Source: a virus
Reading direction: 5' to 3' (one strand)
IMG/VR virus record: IMGVR_UViG_3300048583_000100
Coordinates: 1-64,000 of that record
DNA length: 64,000 nt
In this document: in pieces, positions 3,472 to 59,583 of the stretch
Layout: every line of letters starts with the position of its first letter
How positions within the stretch are numbered: the first letter of the stretch is position 1
Notes under the pieces: model-generated
Databases searched by the model: none
The model's input: the letters and a program-made list of their open reading frames with translations, nothing else
Told to the model about the DNA's origin: nothing
Translations under genes and position numbers: made by a program

Positions 3472-3501
3472 ATTGTACATCTTACGGTGACGCAAGTAAA
3501 C
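3472..3501 (-). promoter_or_regulatory. early-type promoter GTTTAC-N18-TACAAT
   Basis: Matches the motif recurring about 12 times in the window; T4 early -35 is GTTTAC. Confidence 0.7.
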
Positions 3502-6697: not shown

Positions 6698-7305
6698 GAG
6701 TTTTCCTTTTTGACAGGTGATTCTATCGGAGTCATAAAATTGATGGCTGCTTCGATTCGCTCGTCGGCATCTGTGCTCCAAAATGTGTACCTCGGGATTT
6801 TCTCTGACACGAGAAAATCCTCGATACCATATTCGACGTAGTCTCGACTTTCTCTATCGGCTCGGTTTGGCTCGGCGACAAATGGCACGTTGGGATGCTG
6901 TCTAACAAATAGCACGATATCGTATCGCTCTGCCCACAGTTTGCACTTGGCGTAATACTCGCGGGTACGTTCGTCGGTGAGCCAGTTTACGCCAAGGCGC
7001 TCGCACCACATGCGAGTATATGCCCATAGGTCTGCGGGCGAACGCTCGACCATCGTCAGGCGTTTTTCAAACTCGATGAGGTAGTCGCGGTTGTTGAGGG
7101 CTGCCAGAATAGTGTTCTGAAGAGCCCACATGTTCTCGACTGAGTCTTGTGCTCGAGCAAGCGTATCCCAACCGAGGGCGGCTTGAGCTTGACGGGAAAG
7201 CTGTGTACGATCAACGTTAAAGCCGGCAGCTTCGACGCCGTTTAGAATGGTGCTCTTTCCGGTACCATGAGTACCGGAAAGGCCGATGATGAACTTAGTT
7301 GTCAT
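6694..7305 (-). CDS. P-loop nucleotide kinase-like protein (AAA_28/NadR-type)
   Basis: GLSGTHGTGKST Walker A; ERSPADLWAY. Confidence 0.75.
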   Translation of the reverse strand: MTTKFIIGLSGTHGTGKSTILNGVEAAGFNVDRTQLSRQAQAALGWDTLARAQDSVENMWALQNTILAALNNRDYLIEFEKRLTMVERSPADLWAYTRMWCERLGVNWLTDERTREYYAKCKLWAERYDIVLFVRQHPNVPFVAEPNRADRESRDYVEYGIEDFLVSEKIPRYTFWSTDADERIEAAINFMTPIESPVKKENS

Positions 7306-47064: not shown

Positions 47065-47121
47065 CTGATTTCTCCTAATCACTTAGGTCATTATACACCA
47101 CGGTGAATCAGACGTACACTG

Positions 47122-50597: not shown

Positions 50598-51068
50598 TCA
50601 GAAGGTGGCAGCGATCTTGCTGCAGAGGTCCTTGATGTCCAGCTTCTCAGGAGCCTTGATGCCGGCCAGGAGGGCCTGGTGGTTGAGCTTCTCGCGGTTG
50701 GCTTCGGCGGTAGCGATGCCCTTACCCTTGGTCACCGAGGCGTTCCAGATGGGACCGAAGGAGAAGCGGACGCCGTTGGCGGCAGCAACCTTGATGCGGA
50801 CACCCTTGGGGCTGGACTTGATCTTGAGCTTCTTCTCGGCGGCAGGAGCGGCCATGTCGGCGACCAGCGCGGTGAGGGGAGCATCACCTTCAGCTTCGAC
50901 CATCGCAGCAGCTTCCTTGACCATGCGGACGAACTGCATGTTGTCCAGGGAGACCACGAAGTTGTTCACGAGCGGGAACTTCTGGGCAATCCGACGGAGC
51001 TTGTCCATCGCGATCGGATTGGATTCGTCCAGGGCAAGACCGGTGATTTTCGAGATTTCCTTGATCAT
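50598..51068 (-). CDS. basic Ala/Lys-rich protein, first full gene after repeat array 1
   Basis: SD AAGGA; FSFGPIWNASV motif. Confidence 0.7.
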   Translation of the reverse strand: MIKEISKITGLALDESNPIAMDKLRRIAQKFPLVNNFVVSLDNMQFVRMVKEAAAMVEAEGDAPLTALVADMAAPAAEKKLKIKSSPKGVRIKVAAANGVRFSFGPIWNASVTKGKGIATAEANREKLNHQALLAGIKAPEKLDIKDLCSKIAATF

Positions 51069-51130: not shown

Positions 51131-51159
51131 ATTATACACTAACCTGCGGAGATGTACAC
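51131..51159 (-). promoter_or_regulatory. variant early promoter GTGTAC-N17-TATAAT
   Basis: Directly downstream of array 1. Confidence 0.75.
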
Positions 51160-51183
51160 AGTTTTGTTCGGTTATTTTCACTT

Positions 51184-51331
51184 CTAAGTGATTGATCCGT
51201 ATAGGCTTTCTGGAGCGTATCCCTAAGTGATTGATCCGTAAAGGAAACTATTTTCAGTTAGTTTCACTCCCTAAGTGATTGATCCGTATAGGCTTTCTGG
51301 AGTGCTTCCCTAAGTGATTGATCCGTATAGG
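51184..51331. repeat. array 1: four copies of CTAAGTGATTGATCCGTAWAGG
   Basis: Copies start at 51184, 51223, 51271, 51310 (87-bp higher-order unit). Confidence 0.95.
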
Positions 51332-51410
51332 CTTTCTGTAGGCTAGAAACCGTGACCCCAGAGGTCCCCTGGGTCTGGGTGCACCCAGAGAACCTATGTG
51401 ATAGTCTATC

Positions 51411-51785
51411 TTAGGGTTCTACAACCGTGCACCCAGAGGGGAGTCCGAGACCGAAGCTGTCAGGTCCTAGGATTTCGTATCCGCGGACAGGAGCCGCAGC
51501 GGTCCTGAGCAGCTGGTATCCAAGGATGAGCTCGGCGTCTAGAAGACCCTGCCCAATCTGCTCGAGGTATTTCTGGTTGCCCTCGCGAGCAACGATGATC
51601 TTGTTGCTGTGAGCATGGTCGCTCTTGGCAATCTGGATGTCGCCACCTTGGTGCTCGATCATCAGAATGTAGAGCTCTTCAACGTGTACGGTCATGTCGG
51701 GTCCTTTCATCATTGCGCCACAGTTAGCACAGGGGCCGCGGTGACGGATTATGTTTCCACAGCCAGGGCATCCAGGCTCGCTCAT
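51411..51785 (-). CDS. hypothetical protein with N-terminal CxxC..CxxC
   Basis: ATGA coupling. Confidence 0.5.
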   Translation of the reverse strand: MSEPGCPGCGNIIRHRGPCANCGAMMKGPDMTVHVEELYILMIEHQGGDIQIAKSDHAHSNKIIVAREGNQKYLEQIGQGLLDAELILGYQLLRTAAAPVRGYEILGPDSFGLGLPSGCTVVEP

Positions 51786-52129
51786 ATAGATAGCTCGTAG
51801 TTGGGGTTGCCGAGGTTTTCCAGAGCAGCCTTCCGTTCCTTCTTGGTCCACCTTCTGCCCCAGGCATTCCAGTACGTGCCGAAATGCGGGTTGTACTTTG
51901 CAGCCCACCGCTTAAGGACGCGTAGGGAGTCCATTCGAACGTATCGACCCTTTCGAATGGTGCCCTTGTAGTCAGAGAGCACGAGCTCATCCGGCTGGTA
52001 GACACTCACGTGAGAGCCGCCACAGACAACAACGAGGCGACCATCAGGAAGGATGCGCCAGATTCGGCCGTAAAGAATCCAGCCGTCAGCTTGCTCCTTC
52101 TTGGAGAAGACGATGTCGTTACGCTTCAT
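51782..52129 (-). CDS. hypothetical protein
   Basis: SD GGAG. Confidence 0.6.
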   Translation of the reverse strand: MKRNDIVFSKKEQADGWILYGRIWRILPDGRLVVVCGGSHVSVYQPDELVLSDYKGTIRKGRYVRMDSLRVLKRWAAKYNPHFGTYWNAWGRRWTKKERKAALENLGNPNYELSI

Positions 52130-52230
52130 CTTGCTCCTCCATGATGCGTTCGATGTCGAGCTTGAGAATCACGAACTCGCCACCCAGAATGGGGTCTGGA
52201 ACCAGCTTGACTGGGATGCCGTTGACTGTC

Positions 52231-52491
52231 TCAAACTGCTTCATCGGCCCGCTCGCCCTTGACATGCCATGAGATATAGAAGCGATCCAGTTGATAGCTG
52301 CCCGGCTTCTTTCTGAATTTGAAATTGCCCTTGACGAGGACTTGCTCGATGGCATCGGCGAAATACTTCTCAACGTCGAATACCAGGCTGAGCTTGCCGT
52401 CCTCTGCTAGCCTCTTGATAGCCTTTACCAGACTATTCGTCTTCGCCTGTACGGCTATTGCATGTGCGGTTGCGGAGTCGATGGTGCCCAT
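52231..52491 (-). CDS. hypothetical protein
   Basis: Similar to 52494-52751. Confidence 0.55.
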   Translation of the reverse strand: MGTIDSATAHAIAVQAKTNSLVKAIKRLAEDGKLSLVFDVEKYFADAIEQVLVKGNFKFRKKPGSYQLDRFYISWHVKGERADEAV

Positions 52492-52493
52492 GT

Positions 52494-52751
52494 TTATTCC
52501 TTTTCACTGAAGGAGAAGTCGATGGTATATTCCACGACCCTTGGAGCCTTTTCTGCTACCGTGTACTTGTAGCCGTTTTGACTTAAAGTTTGCGAGATGA
52601 TTTCCCGGAATGCTTCGGTTGTTTCAAACACTGCATAGAGGAAACCTTTCTGCGCACTTTCGTCAATTGCCGTCTTTAATCGTTCGATGTGTGACCACTG
52701 GGCCATAGCGTATGCATCTCTTGCCTGGCGAAATGCTTGGTTCATGTTCAT
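52494..52751 (-). CDS. hypothetical protein
   Basis: Similar to 52231-52491. Confidence 0.55.
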   Translation of the reverse strand: MNMNQAFRQARDAYAMAQWSHIERLKTAIDESAQKGFLYAVFETTEAFREIISQTLSQNGYKYTVAEKAPRVVEYTIDFSFSEKE

Positions 52752-52754
52752 TCC

Positions 52755-53174
52755 TTATGGCGCGAGGTTGTCGTTCCTGAAGCGGGCCTTCTCGACGAAC
52801 TCGGACGGTACTTCGAGGACCGCATTTTCGTACTTGTAGACCCGCAGATGTTCCGGCGGTCCGCCAAAGCCCCAGCCCATGTCGTCATCGGAGCTCTGGA
52901 TGGTGTCGTACTGATTCGTGCGACGCTTGAGCGTCACGTTCAGCACCCAGACTTCACTGTCGCCAGTGCTGCGAATCGGGGTAACCTTCTCGAGCTCCCA
53001 GCCGTCCTTGCGAAGGTACTTGCCAGTCAGCTCTTGCGTCTGGCTCCACCACGCGGTGCCGAGAACGTAGACTTGTGAGCCGAAGCGCAGCTTGAGCTCT
53101 TCGATCAGCATCTGGTAGCTTCCCCAGTTGGTGCTGAGAGCGCATGCGTACATCTTACCACGCGACATATTCAT
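52755..53174 (-). CDS. hypothetical protein
   Basis: SD AGGAG. Confidence 0.6.
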   Translation of the reverse strand: MNMSRGKMYACALSTNWGSYQMLIEELKLRFGSQVYVLGTAWWSQTQELTGKYLRKDGWELEKVTPIRSTGDSEVWVLNVTLKRRTNQYDTIQSSDDDMGWGFGGPPEHLRVYKYENAVLEVPSEFVEKARFRNDNLAP

Positions 53175-53331
53175 GACTGCGACTCCTGCTCCAGTTCGCG
53201 CTGGTGAATCATGGCGGCCATCTTGAGGACGGTCTGCTCAGTGATGTAGAGCTCCTTGCCATTGGGAGCCTTGAGAAGGAAAGCGCCGCCGATGTCAGTG
53301 ATCTTCAGCTGGTCGGGAACTCGTTCAGTGT

Positions 53332-53586
53332 TCATGCGACCTCCAACTTCAGGGGCGGCATCGCTGCAGCCTGGACATTCAGTGCGTGAGCGAGAGCATT
53401 GGCCCGCTCACGCTGCTTGTCTTGCGAGTACAGACCCACCGGGAATGCGGCGACCATGCGATCCTTCGGAACGGTGTCGCCGTCATGGTCACATCGACGA
53501 GCAACGGAGAACTCGACGGGTGCTCTGGCACTGCTCCAACCGGTGTAGCCAGTGCGAGTATACACGATGTACTCTTCCATGTTCAT
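53332..53586 (-). CDS. hypothetical protein
   Basis: SD AAGGAG. Confidence 0.6.
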   Translation of the reverse strand: MNMEEYIVYTRTGYTGWSSARAPVEFSVARRCDHDGDTVPKDRMVAAFPVGLYSQDKQRERANALAHALNVQAAAMPPLKLEVA

Positions 53587-53609
53587 TGTCCGAACTCCTT
53601 GAGGTTGGG

Positions 53610-54584
53610 TCAGATGGCCGTCAGCAGGTATTCGGCTCGGCGCTTCCAGTCACCGCCTCGGGCAGAGACCTTGGTGACCGCGATGAGGGTGCGGAGGCTG
53701 AGCTCCTTGGCCTGGTCCTTGAGCTCCTCGAGGAAGGTCAGAGCTTCACGCTTCACCTTCGGCTCGTACTCGGGCAGGAAGTCGTCCTGCAGGATGATCG
53801 CTTCCATGCGCTCGATCTTCTGAGCAGTGTTCATGGAGAGGTCGACGCAGATGGCGCGGGACCGGACGGCCTGGTCGATCTTGAAGATGGGGAGGTTCGA
53901 GATGAAGATCACGCCGCCTTCGAACTGGAAGGAGCGGGGCAGATCGTCGTCACCGAAACCTTCGGCGTTCCAGGAGATGATGCGCTTGTCGTAGGAATCG
54001 AGGGCGCCCTTGAGAAGGTTCAGAGCAACCGGATCGCGGAGGATCGAGTCACAGTCGTCGAAGACGATCGTGCGGTAGCGATTCTCGAAGAGGGTGCGGT
54101 AGAGACCCTTGGCCGTCGAGTAGCCCTTGACGACGCTGTAGAGATTGCGCTGCTTCGAGCGGGGCAGTTCCTCGCCGATGCCGGCGGATTCCATGAACTC
54201 CGACATGTCCTTCATGCCTGCGCTGCGGAGCGCCTTGTTCACGGTGTGGGTCTTGCCGAGGCCGCCTTCACCAGTCACGAGGAGGGAAGCACTCGTGCGA
54301 TCAGCGACCATGTTCACGAAGTCGGTCAGGAAGTCGAAGCGTTCGTTGATGCCGAAGCGTTCGACCTTTTCGAGCTTTCCGGTGGAGACGTCGAGCTGAG
54401 TCTCGCCGACTTCCTTCACCTTGGTAACGCCAGCATCTGCAGCTTTGCGGCACCGGCCGCTCGTGATCATGTTGATCACGTAGTCTTTGTTCGGAGAAGC
54501 TGCGAGGACCTTGCCTGCGTACATGGCGGTCCACTTGTTCGACCGCGTGTCCAGGGAGAGGAGGGCAACATTCGACATATTCAT
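53610..54584 (-). CDS. AAA+-like P-loop ATPase, first gene after repeat array 2
   Basis: GEGGLGKT, IVFDDCD, IFISN, AVRSR (Arg finger), LSLR. Confidence 0.85.
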   Translation of the reverse strand: MNMSNVALLSLDTRSNKWTAMYAGKVLAASPNKDYVINMITSGRCRKAADAGVTKVKEVGETQLDVSTGKLEKVERFGINERFDFLTDFVNMVADRTSASLLVTGEGGLGKTHTVNKALRSAGMKDMSEFMESAGIGEELPRSKQRNLYSVVKGYSTAKGLYRTLFENRYRTIVFDDCDSILRDPVALNLLKGALDSYDKRIISWNAEGFGDDDLPRSFQFEGGVIFISNLPIFKIDQAVRSRAICVDLSMNTAQKIERMEAIILQDDFLPEYEPKVKREALTFLEELKDQAKELSLRTLIAVTKVSARGGDWKRRAEYLLTAI

Positions 54585-54624
54585 CGTGCTCCAGAAAGGA
54601 ATTCGTTATTCAATCTACTGGACT

Positions 54625-54654
54625 ATTCTATCAAGTCCTGAGGAGAATGTACAC
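54625..54654 (-). promoter_or_regulatory. variant early promoter GTGTAC-N18-TAGAAT
   Basis: Directly downstream of array 2. Confidence 0.75.
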
Positions 54655-54674
54655 AGTTCCGGAGATTTATTTAA

Positions 54675-54830
54675 CCTATACGGATCAATCACTTAGGGAC
54701 TGTCTCCGGAGATACCTATACGGATCAATCACTTAGAGCCTGAAATCTTATTCCTTTACGGATCAATCACTTAGGGACTGTCTCCAGAAAAGGTAACGGA
54801 ATCAATCACTTAGGGCATGATTGATTCCGT
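54675..54830. repeat. array 2: four copies of the ATCAATCACTTAG core plus a terminal 13-bp inverted repeat
   Basis: Cores end at 54696, 54736, 54774, 54813; inverted repeat 54796-54808/54818-54830. Confidence 0.95.
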
Positions 54831-54851
54831 CTATTCCTTATCTATAGGGGC

Positions 54852-55178
54852 TTACGGACTGACGGGTTTCGATTCCTCGAAATCGCGAACCACGGACTTG
54901 GCATCGAACTCAATGCTCTCAACCCGGATCGTTCCCTCTTTAGCATAGCGAACCATTTTTCCGCTCTTGTCCCAGACGACCGTAAAGCGTGGGTCATTGT
55001 CAGTAGCGAACCAGCATCCCGTCTCCACGGTCTTTGCGTCAGCAACCAAATCAGGAACATCTACGACCAGCTCGGCGTAGTATCCCTCTTGGCATTCGCC
55101 AACGGTGTCGTGAAGCCGAACTTCACCACCCTGGGCTGCCTTTGACATAATTACTGCAGCGAGCATCAGGCTCAACAT
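54852..55178 (-). CDS. secreted/periplasmic hypothetical protein
   Basis: Signal-peptide-like MLSLMLAAVIMSKAAQG; SD GAGGAG. Confidence 0.55.
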   Translation of the reverse strand: MLSLMLAAVIMSKAAQGGEVRLHDTVGECQEGYYAELVVDVPDLVADAKTVETGCWFATDNDPRFTVVWDKSGKMVRYAKEGTIRVESIEFDAKSVVRDFEESKPVSP

Positions 55179-55191
55179 TTTGAATCTCCTC

Positions 55192-55629
55192 TTATTTTTG
55201 GGGCGGTATGTATGCCAGTGGTTTGTCGTCGTACTCATCTCCGAGAGACGCATTTTCCCAGTGCACGCAGATTAGACCCTGTCGTTCAAGTGAAGCGGTC
55301 GCGACGAGCGACATGAATTTTGAAAGGTACCGATTCAGCTCCTCATGACTCGAGCAGACGCAGCCTTCGGCTCGCGTAAGCATCTCAGTCAGCAGGACCA
55401 TCTGATAGGCAGCTTTATGCTTGTCCTCACTGCCTACATTGACAGTATTTACATAATCGCAGAGCTGGGCTAGATCAGCGTTTGACAGCATCTCGAAGAA
55501 GCCCTTCATCGTGATGTACTGCTGGTCCTTCAGCTTCAGAGCCAAAATGCGAGTCAGTGGCAGCAGGTCCTTGTTGGCAGCGATCTTGTCGTACTGTATG
55601 ACGAGCCCTTTCGGGTAAACACGATCCAT
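55192..55629 (-). CDS. hypothetical protein
   Basis: SD AAGGAG. Confidence 0.6.
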   Translation of the reverse strand: MDRVYPKGLVIQYDKIAANKDLLPLTRILALKLKDQQYITMKGFFEMLSNADLAQLCDYVNTVNVGSEDKHKAAYQMVLLTEMLTRAEGCVCSSHEELNRYLSKFMSLVATASLERQGLICVHWENASLGDEYDDKPLAYIPPQK

Positions 55630-55639
55630 GAAAGCTCCT

Positions 55640-55948
55640 TTAGTTGTCGATTTCGAGGAACTGCTCCGCAGCTTCGAAAGTAAAGTGGCGCACGCGTCGT
55701 TCAGTCACCCTTTCATTTCCACCATTGAAGAACACGGTGCGTCGAACGGTACCACGAATCTTGCGGGCGGACCAGTCGACGCAAATCTTTTCCAGGGGAC
55801 CAGCATGGTACATGATGCCGAAGCCTGTGGTGGCAGCAAGGTCTTCCTTCGTAGGATTGAAGATGTAACGTCGCTCTCCACCATCCAAGCAAAGCTCCAG
55901 ATGCTGAACGACGGTGAATCGCGGACAAAGCGGCTCTTGGAACTTCAT
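55640..55948 (-). CDS. hypothetical protein
   Basis: Operon-packed ORF. Confidence 0.55.
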   Translation of the reverse strand: MKFQEPLCPRFTVVQHLELCLDGGERRYIFNPTKEDLAATTGFGIMYHAGPLEKICVDWSARKIRGTVRRTVFFNGGNERVTERRVRHFTFEAAEQFLEIDN

Positions 55949-55949
55949 C

Positions 55950-56174
55950 TTACACCTCGTACTCGCGGAACTTCATCCACCAGAACTTGTTGGTGTTGAA
56001 GAAGTCGATGGCTTCATGGTGCTGATTCTTGATCTTGATCAGCATCGTGCCCTTCGTCAGGGAGAATCGACGAGCATTGGACGCATGTATCGCTGCGGAC
56101 TGCAGCGCCTCGTCTAGCGACTGAAGACGCTGAATAAATTTGGTCGAAGAGAGCCAGCGCTGAAAAATGTTCAT
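55950..56174 (-). CDS. hypothetical protein
   Basis: ATGA coupling. Confidence 0.55.
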   Translation of the reverse strand: MNIFQRWLSSTKFIQRLQSLDEALQSAAIHASNARRFSLTKGTMLIKIKNQHHEAIDFFNTNKFWWMKFREYEV

Positions 56175-56386
56175 GCTTTATCTCCGCGTACCCACTTCAG
56201 CATCTTGCTGCTGTACGGCTTGATGGCTCGCTCGGCCCATTCATCGCCCAGCAGAATGATCTCAGCGAAATTCTTGAGCAACCACAGAATGCCCGCAAAG
56301 ATCAACATGAGTAGTGCGACGGGCAGCAAAACCCACCAACGCCAGTTAAGGATGGTAAGCTGAAGAATGGATTTTTGGGTGCTCAT
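56171..56386 (-). CDS. small membrane protein
   Basis: TM segment WWVLLPVALLMLIFAGILWLL; ATGA coupling. Confidence 0.55.
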   Translation of the reverse strand: MSTQKSILQLTILNWRWWVLLPVALLMLIFAGILWLLKNFAEIILLGDEWAERAIKPYSSKMLKWVRGDKA

Positions 56387-56625
56387 GCGAAGATTTCCTC
56401 TTGGGCCAGTACACATTGACCGCACTCGACGATCGAGTCGTCTTCCTCGAAAGTAAAGGCGAGGTGACCGGGCAGATGCGGATGACCGACGATGCTGTAC
56501 GTGGTGTTGATTCGAAGACCAGACTTGAACGGCTTCGGAGCCTTGCCACCAGTGCGACGCTTGACCACTCGCTTTCCGAGCATGTCGATGAGGGTGTCTA
56601 CGTCGTACTGTTGAAGAGTGTCCAT
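56383..56625 (-). CDS. hypothetical protein
   Basis: KPFKSGLRINT..HP..AFTFEEDDSIVEC. Confidence 0.6.
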   Translation of the reverse strand: MDTLQQYDVDTLIDMLGKRVVKRRTGGKAPKPFKSGLRINTTYSIVGHPHLPGHLAFTFEEDDSIVECGQCVLAQEEIFA

Positions 56626-56633
56626 GTCCTGCC

Positions 56634-56807
56634 TCAGTCGTCGTTATCGTTGGACCAGCGAGACGGCTTCTGACGCTTGCGGTCAGTCTCTTCAACGGGT
56701 GGCGCGTGCTTTTCGCGGCGCTTGTCTCGCAGCTCTTTGTCTTTCGACTTCTTGCTGCGGAACTCGTTGTAGTCTTCGTCATCGAAATCGCGGAAGCGGG
56801 TGCCCAT
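56634..56807 (-). CDS. small highly charged protein
   Basis: SD AAGGA; MGTRFRDFDDEDY. Confidence 0.5.
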   Translation of the reverse strand: MGTRFRDFDDEDYNEFRSKKSKDKELRDKRREKHAPPVEETDRKRQKPSRWSNDNDD

Positions 56808-56963
56808 TTTCTTGTCCTTGGTGCGGGTTGGTGTTACTCGGAAATTTGAATCCAGCCCCACTCAGTTGCTTTGGGGTCTGGGTTGCAGTTGAAGTCCTTG
56901 AACATCTTACGGGCCGTAGCTCGGTCCAATCCTTGGACTTCACGCCGAGGTTCACTTTCGAAC

Positions 56964-57203
56964 TCAACGTAGAACGTATACTTGGCGGTGTGCATAGGTG
57001 GTGATCGCCATCTGCTTGTTGTGGGCACGAGCGTAGCCAGGCATTGCCTTCTCGACCTTCTTGAAGTACTTGCGGTCGAAAACGTAACGCTGACCGTGGA
57101 AGGTATTGAACACGAACTCAGCGATGAAGGGAACGCCGAGTTCCTTCAGAACGGCCGGGACGTCGTAGCGCTTGGGAAGAGAGAAGCCGAATTCGTTCAT
57201 CAT
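56964..57203 (-). CDS. hypothetical protein
   Basis: ATG just after the GIY-YIG stop. Confidence 0.5.
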   Translation of the reverse strand: MMNEFGFSLPKRYDVPAVLKELGVPFIAEFVFNTFHGQRYVFDRKYFKKVEKAMPGYARAHNKQMAITTYAHRQVYVLR

Positions 57204-57210
57204 GAGATAT

Positions 57211-57543
57211 TTACACCGAGTTGAGGGTGAACTGACCAGACTTGCGGAGAGCCGTTTCGGCGGCGTGGGCATCAGCCTTACCACGAACGAACTGCAGAAT
57301 TTCTGGAACGAAGGCATCGGGACCGTGCTTGCGAATGGACTTGCAGAGGTTCCACTGCTTACCCTGGTTCTTGGCTCGACCGACGTGGCGGCTGAAGCGA
57401 GCTGCGAGGGTTTCCTTTCCGCTGCGATCCACACAGACCGCGATGCCGACATACTGCTCGTCGGTCTTGATGTTCGTGATCACGTACACGATGTGCTTGC
57501 GGTCTGAACGACGCTTGCGCTTGGTAAGTTTGTTCTTGATCAT
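57211..57543 (-). CDS. minimal GIY-YIG nuclease-domain protein, first gene after repeat array 3
   Basis: HIVYVITN..YVGI..RFSRH..AETAL..LN. Confidence 0.7.
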   Translation of the reverse strand: MIKNKLTKRKRRSDRKHIVYVITNIKTDEQYVGIAVCVDRSGKETLAARFSRHVGRAKNQGKQWNLCKSIRKHGPDAFVPEILQFVRGKADAHAAETALRKSGQFTLNSV

Positions 57544-57549
57544 GTGACT

Positions 57550-57578
57550 ATTCTATCACAACCTGAGCAAATGTACAC
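57550..57578 (-). promoter_or_regulatory. variant early promoter GTGTAC-N17-TAGAAT, leaderless geometry
   Basis: -10 box 6 nt before ATG 57543. Confidence 0.75.
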
Positions 57579-57598
57579 AGTCCCGTGAAAATAGTTTT

Positions 57599-57730
57599 GC
57601 TATACGGATCAATCACTTAGGGATCATCAAACCGAAAGCCTTTAGAAATCAATCACTTAGATAGCGAAAATAGTTTTCGTATACGGATCAATCACTTAGG
57701 GACTTATCTATACGGATCAATCACTTAGGG
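57599..57730. repeat. array 3: four copies of the ATCAATCACTTAG core
   Basis: Cores end at 57620, 57660, 57699, 57728. Confidence 0.95.
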
Positions 57731-57745
57731 CAGTGCTATTCCTTA

Positions 57746-58768
57746 TTATAGCAGCTTGGCGATCTCGGCTGACTTAGCTCGTAGCATGTCCTGGGTCTCG
57801 GCTGCTTTCTGCTTGGCTCGGTCGGTCTGGGCCTTGTCAAATTTGCTGCTCTTGGCCAAGTCCTCATTCTTCTTGATGTACGTTTCGCGGACCTTGGAAA
57901 GGAAATCCTCTTGCGAAGAGATGTGCTTGAGCAGTCCCTTACTGTACATGTCGTTGAGTGCGAAGGATTCTCCAAGACCCTTGATTGCTGATGCGAGATC
58001 GGCAATCTTGATTTCGGATTTCGTAATACCCGGGTGCGCTGCTAGACCCTTGCTGATCTTGACCTTACCTTCTCCATCTCTTTCGTGGAAAGCTTTCAGG
58101 ATATCAGTTGCGAAGGTGTCGATGCTTGTAGACAGGGTGCGAAGTTTGTCGGCCTTTAAGGTGCGGAAGCTCACCACTTCACCGCCCTTCTCTTTCATCT
58201 GTACACCCGAGTCGCCAATGCTGAGATTGAGAACTTCTGCGAGTGATGAGTAAAGGAAGCCGATGAGTGCACCCTTGACACCGTGTTCAGGAGTCATGCG
58301 ATGCGAAGTCCAATCTTCGAGGTCAGTGAATGACTTGACGAGATCGATCTGAACAGCCTGATCACCGACCTGGAATACAAGAGCCGCACCCTTGAAGGAT
58401 GTGCCAGCAGCCAGATATGAAAGATCGTTGTCGTCTATGTACTCGTCAAGCTCTTCACGATAGAGACGCCAGTTGTCTGAGCCTTTCATTCCCTCAATAC
58501 GAGGAACGATGAACATCACATCGATGTCACCGTACTCTTTGTCTGGGTTAGACTTGAGATCGCGTTCGATGTATGCAGAGGAACCGACTGGCTTACCAAA
58601 TGCGACAGGCGCAAGGTTCTTCTTTGCAAGATGAGCATTGAAGTCCTTCTCGAATCTAGGAAGCAGTGCGAGTGCCTTCTTAGCAAGAGCCGGAGTCAGA
58701 ATAACGTCTTGCGTAAGGGTGCTAGACCAGCCACCCTCAGCTAGGAACTCTTTGAATGATCGCTTCAC
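57746..58768 (-). CDS. Pol-beta-superfamily nucleotidyltransferase with capsid-targeting-like N-terminus
   Basis: MKRSFKEFLAE-G; VGSS..YGDIDV..QIDL. Confidence 0.7.
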   Translation of the reverse strand: MKRSFKEFLAEGGWSSTLTQDVILTPALAKKALALLPRFEKDFNAHLAKKNLAPVAFGKPVGSSAYIERDLKSNPDKEYGDIDVMFIVPRIEGMKGSDNWRLYREELDEYIDDNDLSYLAAGTSFKGAALVFQVGDQAVQIDLVKSFTDLEDWTSHRMTPEHGVKGALIGFLYSSLAEVLNLSIGDSGVQMKEKGGEVVSFRTLKADKLRTLSTSIDTFATDILKAFHERDGEGKVKISKGLAAHPGITKSEIKIADLASAIKGLGESFALNDMYSKGLLKHISSQEDFLSKVRETYIKKNEDLAKSSKFDKAQTDRAKQKAAETQDMLRAKSAEIAKLL

Positions 58769-59583
58769 GTTACATACCTAAAATTCGGAGAGCGAGAACC
58801 ATTCCTGCCCGTACCTAAACTATTTACGAGGTGCTTTACCGATTCGAAGATAGTGACACCGTCTACAGTGCAAGCCCTTTTGTTCTTTGACATATCCTTT
58901 GACTTGCGCATGTTCTGCTTTGCTTCTTCAGAATGCTTCTTACCAAGTCGGACCTGTCGAATTGATTCTTTGTGAGCCGTAGAAAATGTCGGTAAGACTT
59001 TCGACTTTCCTTTTGTGGCTTTTGAAATATTGTGACGTGTTTCGGGAGTTCTGGTTTGTCCAGTGCCACCCTCAGAAATCTTCTTCTTGTGTTCTTCAGT
59101 TAGCACTTTACCCGTCAGCGCATTTCGAATTTTTTCACGAGCTTCAGGGGTATGCGTAGTCCAGGTTTTTGCTCTAGAAGCGGCTATCTTGTCGTACCAC
59201 TCTTTTGTGCGAACATATTTCTTGGACGCTGCTGAAAGCTTTGCACTTGTTTCTGCTTTTGTCGGTGGGCGATCATAGTAGCCTTCTCCACCGGGCCCAC
59301 AATTCATGCAAGCGGGATCTTTTCTAAGCTCAACAGTAATGAGCTCTTTTTCTTTATCTGATGCTTCTTGTCGAGAAGAAAATTCGAATAGCACCTGAGA
59401 TACATGCCTGTCTTTACCGTATTTTCTGATGGACTTTCTCAGTCGCATACCGCTGCCCAAATAACCATCATTCAAGTTATCAGTGCTGTGCATCCCGATA
59501 TAAAAGGCACCTGTTTCAATGCAAACTGTCTTATAGACAATATGGTGCTTTCTATTTGACGCTCTAACGTACTTCTTTTCCAT
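58765..59583 (-). mobile_element. Seg-like GIY-YIG homing endonuclease with NUMOD3-like repeats
   Basis: IVYKTV..FYIGMHST..YLGSG; HTPEAREKI, LTEEHKKKIS, HSEEAKQNM repeats; AT-richer than neighbours; TATAAATA 59610-59617. Confidence 0.85.

Follow-up and report, generated by a model that had tools for sequence, protein, structure and literature searches.

The genome of an uncultured giant T4-like phage, represented by a 97-kb record, carries three arrays of four repeats beside early promoters with a weak −35 element. The repeats have a regular two-part anatomy, are conserved, are widely distributed in viral and bacterial contigs, and are linked to promoters. With moderate confidence, and going by sequence, we interpret the arrays as sites for host IHF that would act as architectural upstream elements for these promoters, the effect presumably being activation or insulation.

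The window (the whole 64-kb stretch of DNA that was analyzed) holds 12 exact copies of ATCAATCACTTAG, in the three four-copy arrays reported in a preliminary description of this DNA: array 1 at 51184–51331 (minus strand; cores at 51184, 51223, 51271, and 51310, in four units with a ~24-nt repeat), array 2 at 54675–54813 (plus strand; cores at 54684, 54724, 54762, and 54801), and array 3 at 57599–57728 (plus strand; cores at 57608, 57648, 57687, and 57716). If up to two mismatches are allowed, the window contains 14 matches versus 1.6 expected, and none of 100 shuffles contained as many. There are no copies of ATCAATCACTTAG in the remaining 33 kb of the record. The orientation of array 1 had to be corrected: it is inverted relative to arrays 2 and 3, and all three promoters are on the minus strand. 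Array 1 is therefore inverted relative to its own promoter (P1), with the motif pointing to P1; the motif points away from P2 and P3 in the other two arrays. Start-to-start spacing is 39, 48, and 39 bp in array 1, 40, 38, and 39 bp in array 2, and 40, 39, and 29 bp in array 3, so that seven of the nine intervals have the 38- to 40-bp spacing first described as typical.

Each ~39-bp unit consists of an A-rich tract at −15 to −11 (AGAAA or AAATA in the window units), CC, a TA-rich stretch, the ATCAA-TCAC-TTA core, and then GGG. The core unit is 24 nt long, but the 15-nt “spacers” between units are conserved too. A CTCCAGAAAG-like and a GAAAATAGTTTT-like spacer, each a conserved type, follow one another in alternation, which implies a higher-order unit of ~78 bp. 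The motif also happens to carry stop codons in all three frames, a feature not conserved in relatives.

All 12 copies fit ATCAA-N4-TTR. As had been noted, the W position is A in two copies (54800 and 57647) and G in the other ten; it is A in the copies of relatives. The A/T tract said to end 8 bp before the core was recovered as the A-rich −15 to −11 tract of the window units, whose end lies 8 nt before the W position; the lambda H′ site has the same arrangement. H′, a strong two-part site for IHF, and the IHF-assisted sigma70 promoters lambda pL and Mu Pe likewise combine a WATCAA-N4-TTR core with an A-tract about one helical turn upstream, and at pL and Pe the site lies upstream of an early promoter of the host RNA polymerase, as here, with an apparent dependence on helix face. 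The arrays differ from these cases in having four full sites at 38–40 bp instead of one or two, in an orientation that can flip, in a nearly invariant N4 block (T-N-A-C), and in their presence in a giant T4-like phage that is lytic and whose DNA probably contains glucosyl-hmC.

The three promoters are P1 (51131–51159, minus strand; GTGTAC-N17-TATAAT), which drives an operon led by a 156-aa ORF (50598–51068), P2 (54625–54654, minus strand; GTGTAC-N18-TAGAAT), which drives an AAA+ ATPase gene (53610–54584, minus strand; phrog_1250, similar to T4 NrdC.10) that is the first gene behind array 2, and P3 (57550–57578, minus strand; GTGTAC-N17-TAGAAT), whose −10 element ends 6 nt from the ATG of a 110-aa GIY-YIG gene (57211–57543). 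A “variant” early promoter had been proposed for each array; one is indeed present at all three, although its GTgTAC −35 element (mostly with N17, as in two of the three array-linked promoters of the window) is only one base different from the GTTTAC-N18 early promoter of this phage. The distance from promoter to array, first given as about 20–25 bp, is 24 bp for array 1 (from GTGTAC to the first 12-bp core). For arrays 2 and 3, 30 bp separate the TGTACA hexamer from the first 12-bp core, and the 23-mer unit begins after ~21 bp. Taking this phage together with a sister contig, arrays lie beside five of eight GTGTAC promoters and none of 24 GTTTAC promoters, a ratio that does not represent five independent events because the array modules are paralogous. 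The suggested co-location with GTGTAC promoters is thus real but incomplete, as three promoters of this class lack arrays; one GTGTAC-N18 promoter without an array, the fourth of its class in the window, is at 47119. Furthermore, a hairpin and a promoter are all that the orthologous gaps of closer relatives contain, which means that these promoters as such do not require an array.

The link to promoters extends well beyond this phage. Tandem ATCAAT-N-ACTTA pairs are present in viruses (IMG/VR) and in bacteria, with at least 120 contigs in each case and less than one hit expected by chance, and versions with two to five copies are common in uncultured phages. Averaged over 114 independent viral pairs, AT content is 73%–88% at −15 to −11, CC stands at −8/−7, −6 to −1 is AT-rich, and C or G is found at +12. 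A relative with only 40% AAA identity still carries, upstream of the AAA+ gene, two copies of an identical 17-mer. In the viral contigs, 53 strong promoters are directed away from the arrays and 10 toward them. For the antisense orientation, the distance to the −35 element clusters at 19–20, 28–31, 40–44, and 50–54 bp (38 dissimilar sequence clusters), i.e., it rises in steps of ~10 bp, and arrays 2 and 3, at 30 bp, fall in this series. These observations favor an enhancer among the three functions originally put forward.

The motif is stricter than the textbook IHF consensus: within the N4 block, T, A, and C hardly vary, so that the true binder may be some other protein whose specificity overlaps that of IHF. 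We consider it unlikely that the sites bind another sequence-specific protein (an early phage protein or a conserved host nucleoid protein) and that the arrays serve as an operator or enhancer. Conservation does exceed the known requirements of IHF: all 20 copies in the array-bearing contigs G000 and G001 have the same TCAC block, ~85% of the sites partnered with a canonical one retain A and C at N3 and N4, and in another contig, G003, the excess over chance is almost entirely in T-G/A-AC variants. In vivo IHF logos from E. coli differ at N1, with G/C at the first N (PMC8407004), and related lineages use a different upstream box, a phased GTTAC, at the same promoters. On the other hand, no protein family is common to the array-bearing viral loci (any one family occurs in at most 13 of 120), which fits a host factor better than a phage protein. 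A search of five phage records, one of which is 83% complete, detected no HU/IHF gene (PF00216), and this too suggests that the factor comes from the host. Among the ~30 ORFs neighboring the arrays, Pfam and PHROG scans identified only the AAA+ ATPase, GIY-YIG and NUMOD3 endonucleases, a UvrD-like helicase, and a nucleotidyltransferase-kinase, with no DNA-binding candidate, and the operons adjoining the arrays encode no DNA-binding domain detectable by these scans. Finally, the two-part A-tract layout matches IHF, and a phage binder cannot explain why the motif occurs on chromosomes at DnaA-box clusters, tRNA ends, and a MITE.

In bacteria, the motif occurs 58 times versus 14 for a reversed control in five proteobacterial genomes. 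At 12 Cellvibrionales loci, a motif pair lies ~100 bp from a trio of perfect DnaA boxes, other pairs adjoin the ends of tRNA genes, and a Thiotrichaceae MITE holds two sites. As sequence contexts, these are typical for IHF. The Cellvibrionales pairs, next to a DARS-like DnaA-box trio, resemble E. coli DARS2, which has two IHF sites (IBS1-2; PMC4245941). The phage arrays share with DARS2, datA, and oriC the tandem 13-mer IHF consensus sites as architectural elements (PMC4245941), but they have no DnaA boxes, and their association is with promoters instead of DnaA cycling. The MITE likens the arrays to bacterial repeats that carry IHF sites: BIME-1/RIP (E. coli) and Correia elements (Neisseria) are also short, dispersed intergenic repeats around an IHF site, although they are chromosomal, mobile or REP-associated, and form no promoter-linked four-site arrays. 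Overall, the proposal that the repeats are IHF sites is strengthened by the full two-part layout, by the IHF-type bacterial contexts, and by the occurrence in unrelated phages without a common protein, and weakened by an N4 block stricter than the consensus.

We read each array as four full sites of high quality for a DNA bender of the IHF type, most probably the host's own IHF. The footprint of IHF is 34–35 bp, and because the ~39-bp unit is about one such footprint, up to four dimers could bind adjacently, side by side. Sharp bending of the DNA beside RNA polymerase might then raise or time promoter activity, and occupancy of the gap after the preceding operon may insulate the promoter from read-through. 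The targets would be an early subclass of host-sigma70 promoters with a weakened −35 element (GTgTAC), mostly with a 17-nt spacer. Contiguous wrapping, as originally envisaged, is possible for eight of the nine intervals (38–48 bp), but the 29-bp interval is under the footprint. This interval, and the 25- to 29-bp periods of many arrays in other phages, are too tight for simultaneous canonical IHF binding. IHF binds in the minor groove, and on that basis we assume that it can bind DNA that probably carries glucosyl-hmC.

IHF sites are also common components of replication origins, and an iteron-like origin had been proposed. Such arrays would be origin elements in the style of T4 (a promoter with repeats), plasmids, or lambda, with the AAA+ ATPase as initiator or loader, a reading that we consider very unlikely. 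Lambda ori does have four direct repeats, the same AAA+ gene is found just downstream from array 2 and its counterparts (its homolog is preceded by tandem sites in 15 of 16 related viral loci), and one array in G001 precedes a UvrD-like helicase gene. However, neither DnaA boxes nor an AT-rich unwinding element was found near any array (the lowest 40-bp GC is 27%–30%, in a window inside the repeats), and cumulative GC skew, proposed as a check, shows no turn. There are at least five arrays in 148 kb and at least 17 motif-bearing promoters in G003, and the repeat period ranges from 25 to 67 bp in other phages. The alignment-based model of the AAA+ protein (pLDDT 84) resembles generic AAA+ and NorQ/MoxR folds rather than initiators and shows no DNA-binding domain (a single-sequence model, with pLDDT 42, was of no use). 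The origin proposal is not supported.

The arrays could instead be mainly recombination substrates, that is, PeSL-like promoter cassettes for gene shuffling with no dedicated binder. The ~200-bp array-plus-promoter modules are the sole DNA shared by G000 and G001 and are placed between small, variable early genes. PeSLs of T4-type phages are likewise dispersed, repeated early-promoter cassettes between small early genes and the only DNA homology between distant genome regions, and the orthologous gaps of relatives hold PeSL-like hairpin-plus-promoter cassettes (PMC2839356, PMC4122927). A PeSL, however, is one stem-loop directly upstream of a sigma70-like promoter, whereas the arrays are direct repeats of a protein site, with a hairpin at array 2 only; arrays 1 and 3 fold like shuffles. 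Within the modules the site units alone are conserved and the spacers diverge, and the 12-mer is kept across lineages with 30%–40% protein identity and also in bacteria. This pattern points to selection on a binding site rather than on the length of homology, and we consider a primarily recombinational role very unlikely.

The hairpin of array 2 (54795–54831, minus strand) forms because a partial, inverted 13th copy (the fifth of this array, at 54816–54831) pairs over 15 bp with copy 4; it is followed by a T-rich tail and looks like a terminator for the upstream operon (stop codon at 54852). It accounts for the fold signal of array 2 (z −2.3 to −3.1); with both strands folded, z is ~0 for arrays 1 and 3. 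This argues against an RNA function of the arrays, whether as a CRISPR-repeat mimic or as a small RNA released by processing, which the regular repeat-spacer layout might suggest, as might the relative L110, in which a long hairpin behind a promoter has two copies in its loop. CRISPR arrays are transcribed in a fixed direction and have 28- to 37-nt repeats with variable spacers, plus a hairpin or cas context. Here, the core unit measures 24 nt, conservation extends to the 15-nt “spacers,” sites are found in both orientations with respect to transcription, there is no RNA structure, and Rfam and tRNA scans of the region gave no match. The related idea of a decoy that withholds IHF from CRISPR adaptation is numerically implausible, because 12–20 sites per genome are few compared with the thousands of IHF dimers in a cell. 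We judge an RNA or decoy role to be extremely unlikely.

Three other candidates were rejected. A 3.3-kb segment with the AAA+ gene is flanked by arrays 1 and 2 in inverted orientation, as it might be by transposon ends, but there is no transposase, relatives are syntenic, and array 3 is oriented like array 2. The TTAGGGA at the core end recalls a T7-like promoter, but the register does not fit and the orientation would yield antisense RNAs. Dam/GATC control is contradicted by relatives, in which AATC replaces GATC. A likeness to the anti-Shine-Dalgarno sequence was also noted, but relatives do not conserve it.

The array-bearing clade is known from metagenomes only. Isolate phages gave no match to the region (megablast) or to a 340-aa neighbor (tblastn), and Proteobacteria are the hosts of all the nearest isolates. 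Weighing against the IHF reading, isolates akin to array-bearing contigs do not have the motif (RsoM2USA, Atu_ph07, Phosso, XbC2, HTVC027P, and one Vibrio giant phage). Full-text literature yielded only chance matches to the 12-mers. In the literature searched, the claim that the layout is undescribed stands, but it needs qualification in that shorter rows are common in uncultured phages and bacteria.

A more speculative reading, which we consider unlikely, is that close-packed rows of four (elsewhere five) sites form a defined multi-dimer bending body, a regulatory device peculiar to giant T4-like phages that is both insulator and enhancer, or that the conserved T-N-AC extension marks an undescribed IHF-like bender. 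In the former case, glucosyl-hmC DNA, unreadable to most host regulators, would still be controlled via a host protein that binds the minor groove; in the latter, many phages would exploit an IHF-like DNA-bending protein common to many bacteria.

The two-part site (A-tract, CC, TA-rich stretch, ATCAAT-N-ACTTA) occurs in tandem in hundreds of phage and bacterial contigs, helix-phased upstream of promoters. It offers a testable motif for annotating regulatory regions of phage dark matter and for inferring IHF in hosts. If rows of IHF sites do act beside weak-(−35) promoters, the early program of these phages would be partly tied to a host architectural protein. IHF levels follow growth phase, and the phage would thus have a built-in sensor of host state. 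It would also mean that a phage with heavily modified cytosines can still make use of a DNA-binding protein of its host.

The three intergenic arrays of an IHF-type element are a real feature of this phage. Exact copies of ATCAATCACTTAG number 12 in the window, which bears out the preliminary count of three arrays of four, and there are only two unrelated 2-mismatch matches besides; these 14 matches (two mismatches or fewer) compare with a chance expectation of ~1.6, and no shuffle attains 14. Across the other 33 kb of the 97-kb record there are no copies (the window covers its initial 64 kb, and the completeness estimate of the record is 27%). Arrays 2 (54675-54813; four copies, 40/38/39 bp start to start) and 3 (57599-57728; four copies, 40/39/29 bp) are on the plus strand. 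The genes and promoters of the region are all on the minus strand, as is array 1 (51184-51331; four copies, 39/48/39 bp), which, unlike the other two, is thus inverted relative to P1, the early promoter next to it. A partial, inverted fifth copy of the array 2 element (54816-54831) pairs with copy 4 to form a hairpin of 15 bp, followed by a T-rich tail, the sole RNA-like structure among the three arrays. The "spacers" between copies are of two conserved kinds that alternate, and the true repeat is therefore a dimer of ~78 bp. The copies and positions first described hold, and the strand of array 1, the fifth copy and the alternating spacers had been overlooked. Directly upstream of array 1, the stretch 51335-51480 contains a GTGCACCCAGAG-like word three times, together with nested inverted repeats. 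As minus-strand RNA it has a predicted folding energy of -54.5 kcal/mol (z -1.8); it is not covered by any convincing ORF, and no family match was found for it.

When all 27 copies from the window phage, the related contig G001, G002 and three metagenomic relatives are aligned, the conserved block of the unit spans ~31 bp. Counting from the A of ATCAA, it comprises an A-rich stretch (-15 to -11) followed by G, CC and TATA, a short variable segment, the 12-mer core and GGGA. In the lambda site H', an A-tract at -15 to -10 is followed by WATCAA-N4-TTR, and the window unit likewise has its A-tract just upstream of such a core. Judged by sequence, the unit has the bipartite organisation of strong IHF sites. 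The array period (38-40 bp) is slightly above one 34-bp IHF footprint (consensus and footprint quoted in PMC4245941).

Proteins encoded by the record include a family-B DNA polymerase and both subunits of topoisomerase II, along with a T4 beta-glucosyltransferase-family protein and two members of the thymidylate-synthase family. Its closest isolates are Ralstonia phage RsoM2USA (polymerase identity 45%) and giant phages of Xanthomonas and Stenotrophomonas; all of them infect Proteobacteria, and no isolate closely matches the record in DNA sequence. Early promoters of the standard class read GTTTAC-N18-TAYAAT, on the minus strand in every case, and the promoters next to arrays 1, 2 and 3 (P1, P2 and P3) have GTgTAC with N17, N18 and N17, respectively. 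The reported association of arrays with a variant promoter stands, but GTgTAC is a one-base variant of the GTTTAC class, not a separate promoter kind. G001, a 51-kb contig from a different sample, has the same promoters and two further four-copy arrays; it has no protein in common with the window record and may be another part of the same genome or of a sister genome. Over both records, an array is present at five of eight GTGTAC promoters versus none of 24 GTTTAC promoters, confirming the suspected co-location, although these are not five independent events because the modules are paralogous.

Some other details of these promoters and their genes deserve mention. GTTTAC-N18 promoters at 3501, 7864, 14608, 28632 and elsewhere (minus strand) have a short dyad around the -35 (TCAG-TTTACTT-CTGA), possibly an operator or a PeSL-like stem. 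At 57543-57555, the -10 of P3 ends 6 nt ahead of the ATG of a GIY-YIG gene that lacks a Shine-Dalgarno sequence; its mRNA may be leaderless. This GIY-YIG-only ORF of 110 aa overlaps a 162-aa ORF in a different frame (56964-57543), which could mean that an endonuclease has been split or frameshifted. Two genes upstream is a full homing endonuclease (phrog_314, NUMOD3; 58765-59583).

A scan of the full record and its relatives, as the preliminary description proposed, found the motif in G001, in G003 and in a freshwater-sediment relative. G003 (293 kb, 83% complete, ~40% identity in proteins shared with the window phage) has 14 exact copies of AATCAATGACTTA and ~15 with one change, nearly always within the four bases between ATCAA and TTA (the N4 block). 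All are upstream of conserved TTGACC early promoters, either single or paired 56 bp apart. A conserved upstream module of ~200 bp is repeated at least eight times in G003 (56845, 79616, 123473, 161440, 269191 and others); in order, it has a pair of sites (56 bp apart), a GGTTTTTAGCGGCGTTTTT-like segment and the early promoter. In the sediment relative, the identical 17-mer occurs twice, 37 bp apart, upstream of a GTGTAC promoter and the same AAA+ ATPase gene that is first behind array 2 (AAA+ identity just 40%). In a relative of G003 (L110/L134), a sigma70-type promoter is followed by a hairpin with a 22-bp stem and a T-run; the motif is present twice in the hairpin loop, with degenerate copies forming the arms, and the element may be a small RNA or an array variant prone to cruciform formation.

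Searching IMG/VR and a bacterial genome collection for two ATCAAT-N-ACTTA cores 18-48 bp apart gave at least 120 matches in each, for a chance expectation below one. Among the viral loci listed are both giant T4-like phages and relatives of Pelagibacter podophages; any single protein family is present in at most 13 of these 120 loci, and none is common to all. On average, the members of the 114 non-identical viral pairs listed resemble each other at the site alone, and their profile (A-tract -15 to -11, CC -8/-7, AT-rich -6 to -1, core, C/G at +12) matches that of the window unit.

Position relative to promoters is also constrained. Among 148 distinct viral arrays, strong sigma70-type promoters within 150 bp are directed away in 53 cases and towards the array in 10, and both motif orientations are seen. 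In the antisense orientation (that of arrays 2 and 3; 38 clusters after merging similar sequences), the gap from core to -35 is 19-20 bp (15 clusters), 28-31 bp (eight), 40-44 bp (six) or 50-54 bp (three), a step of ~10 bp that fits a bend obliged to face one way. The gap is 30 bp at arrays 2 and 3 and at the G001 array of the same orientation; sense arrays show comparable steps (~5, 15 and 27 bp). The core promoter does not include the arrays. In closer relatives (AAA identity 69-74%), the orthologous gaps have just a terminator-like hairpin and a promoter, and in a sister lineage (L048:7030-7080; L070:1850-1910, 7080-7140) GTGTAC promoters have three to four GTTAC boxes, ~10-12 bp apart, in place of the upstream IHF-type sites. 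As an upstream module, the arrays are thus optional and specific to certain lineages.

In bacteria, the motif occurs in settings with a known role for IHF. Several pairs adjoin tRNA gene 3' ends, placed like the arms of prophage attachment sites. A MITE-like element carrying two sites is present in >20 copies in one Thiotrichaceae MAG (L283, L284, L293 and >20 others; ~105 bp, terminal inverted repeats, sites 33 bp apart). The genomes of five cultured proteobacteria have 58 occurrences of the 12-mer versus 14 of the reversed control. In twelve Cellvibrionales/Porticoccaceae genomes, a site pair lies at a fixed spot ~100 bp from a perfect DnaA-box trio, a layout resembling E. coli DARS2, the activity of which requires two adjacent IHF sites (PMC4245941). 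This conserved intergenic locus (L287:2800-3200, L351:300-600 and 10 more) has the trio as forward, reverse and reverse-like, the two sites 30 bp apart, one further DnaA box, and no gidA, mioC or dnaA in its flanks; it resembles a DnaA-reactivating site of the DARS2 type, here outside enterics. No HU/IHF-family protein was found in five phage records, near-complete G003 among them. Given viral loci without a common family, IHF-typical bacterial contexts and phages without HU/IHF, a conserved host protein, particularly IHF, is the most economical candidate for the binder. That a different protein binds the sites is a serious alternative: the constraint on the N4 block (T-N-A-C) is far above the textbook IHF consensus, E. 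coli in-vivo IHF logos favour G/C at its first position (PMC8407004), and the motif is wholly absent from several isolates related to array-bearing contigs.

Tandem sites precede the AAA+ ATPase homologue in 15 of 16 related loci, as might be expected if the arrays were replication origin elements. The iteron-like origin first suggested is nevertheless disfavoured: DnaA boxes and an AT-rich unwinding stretch are both absent from the arrays, there are more arrays than origins would call for, and the cumulative skew, the check suggested for origin activity, shows no turn. The ATPase itself is modelled (pLDDT 84) as a generic AAA+ fold, nearest NorQ/MoxR, with no DNA-binding domain. An RNA element is unlikely because arrays are found in either orientation, show no folding and have no Rfam match. 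The suggested role as a sink for host IHF has no support, and the site count is small.

IHF-assisted phage promoters are known. Repeated early-promoter cassettes (PeSL; PMC2839356, PMC4122927) and tandem IHF sites (DARS2; PMC4245941) have also been described. In the literature searched, we found no description of four-site rows beside early promoters, in agreement with the preliminary claim that no described phage system has such a layout, or of the extended motif (ATCAAT-N-ACTTA type).

We propose that host IHF, the putative binder, would fill the units and bend each by ~160-180 degrees. The promoter-proximal dimer, on a fixed face ~20 or 30 bp from the -35, would fold upstream DNA onto RNA polymerase, compensating for the weakened -35. 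The outer dimers would compact the ~150-bp gap, and might also stop or reduce transcription running in from the preceding operon; relatives have a hairpin terminator closing this gap in place of the predicted IHF rows. IHF reads DNA chiefly via the minor groove, and for this reason could be one of the few host proteins able to recognise its sites on glucosyl-hmC DNA.
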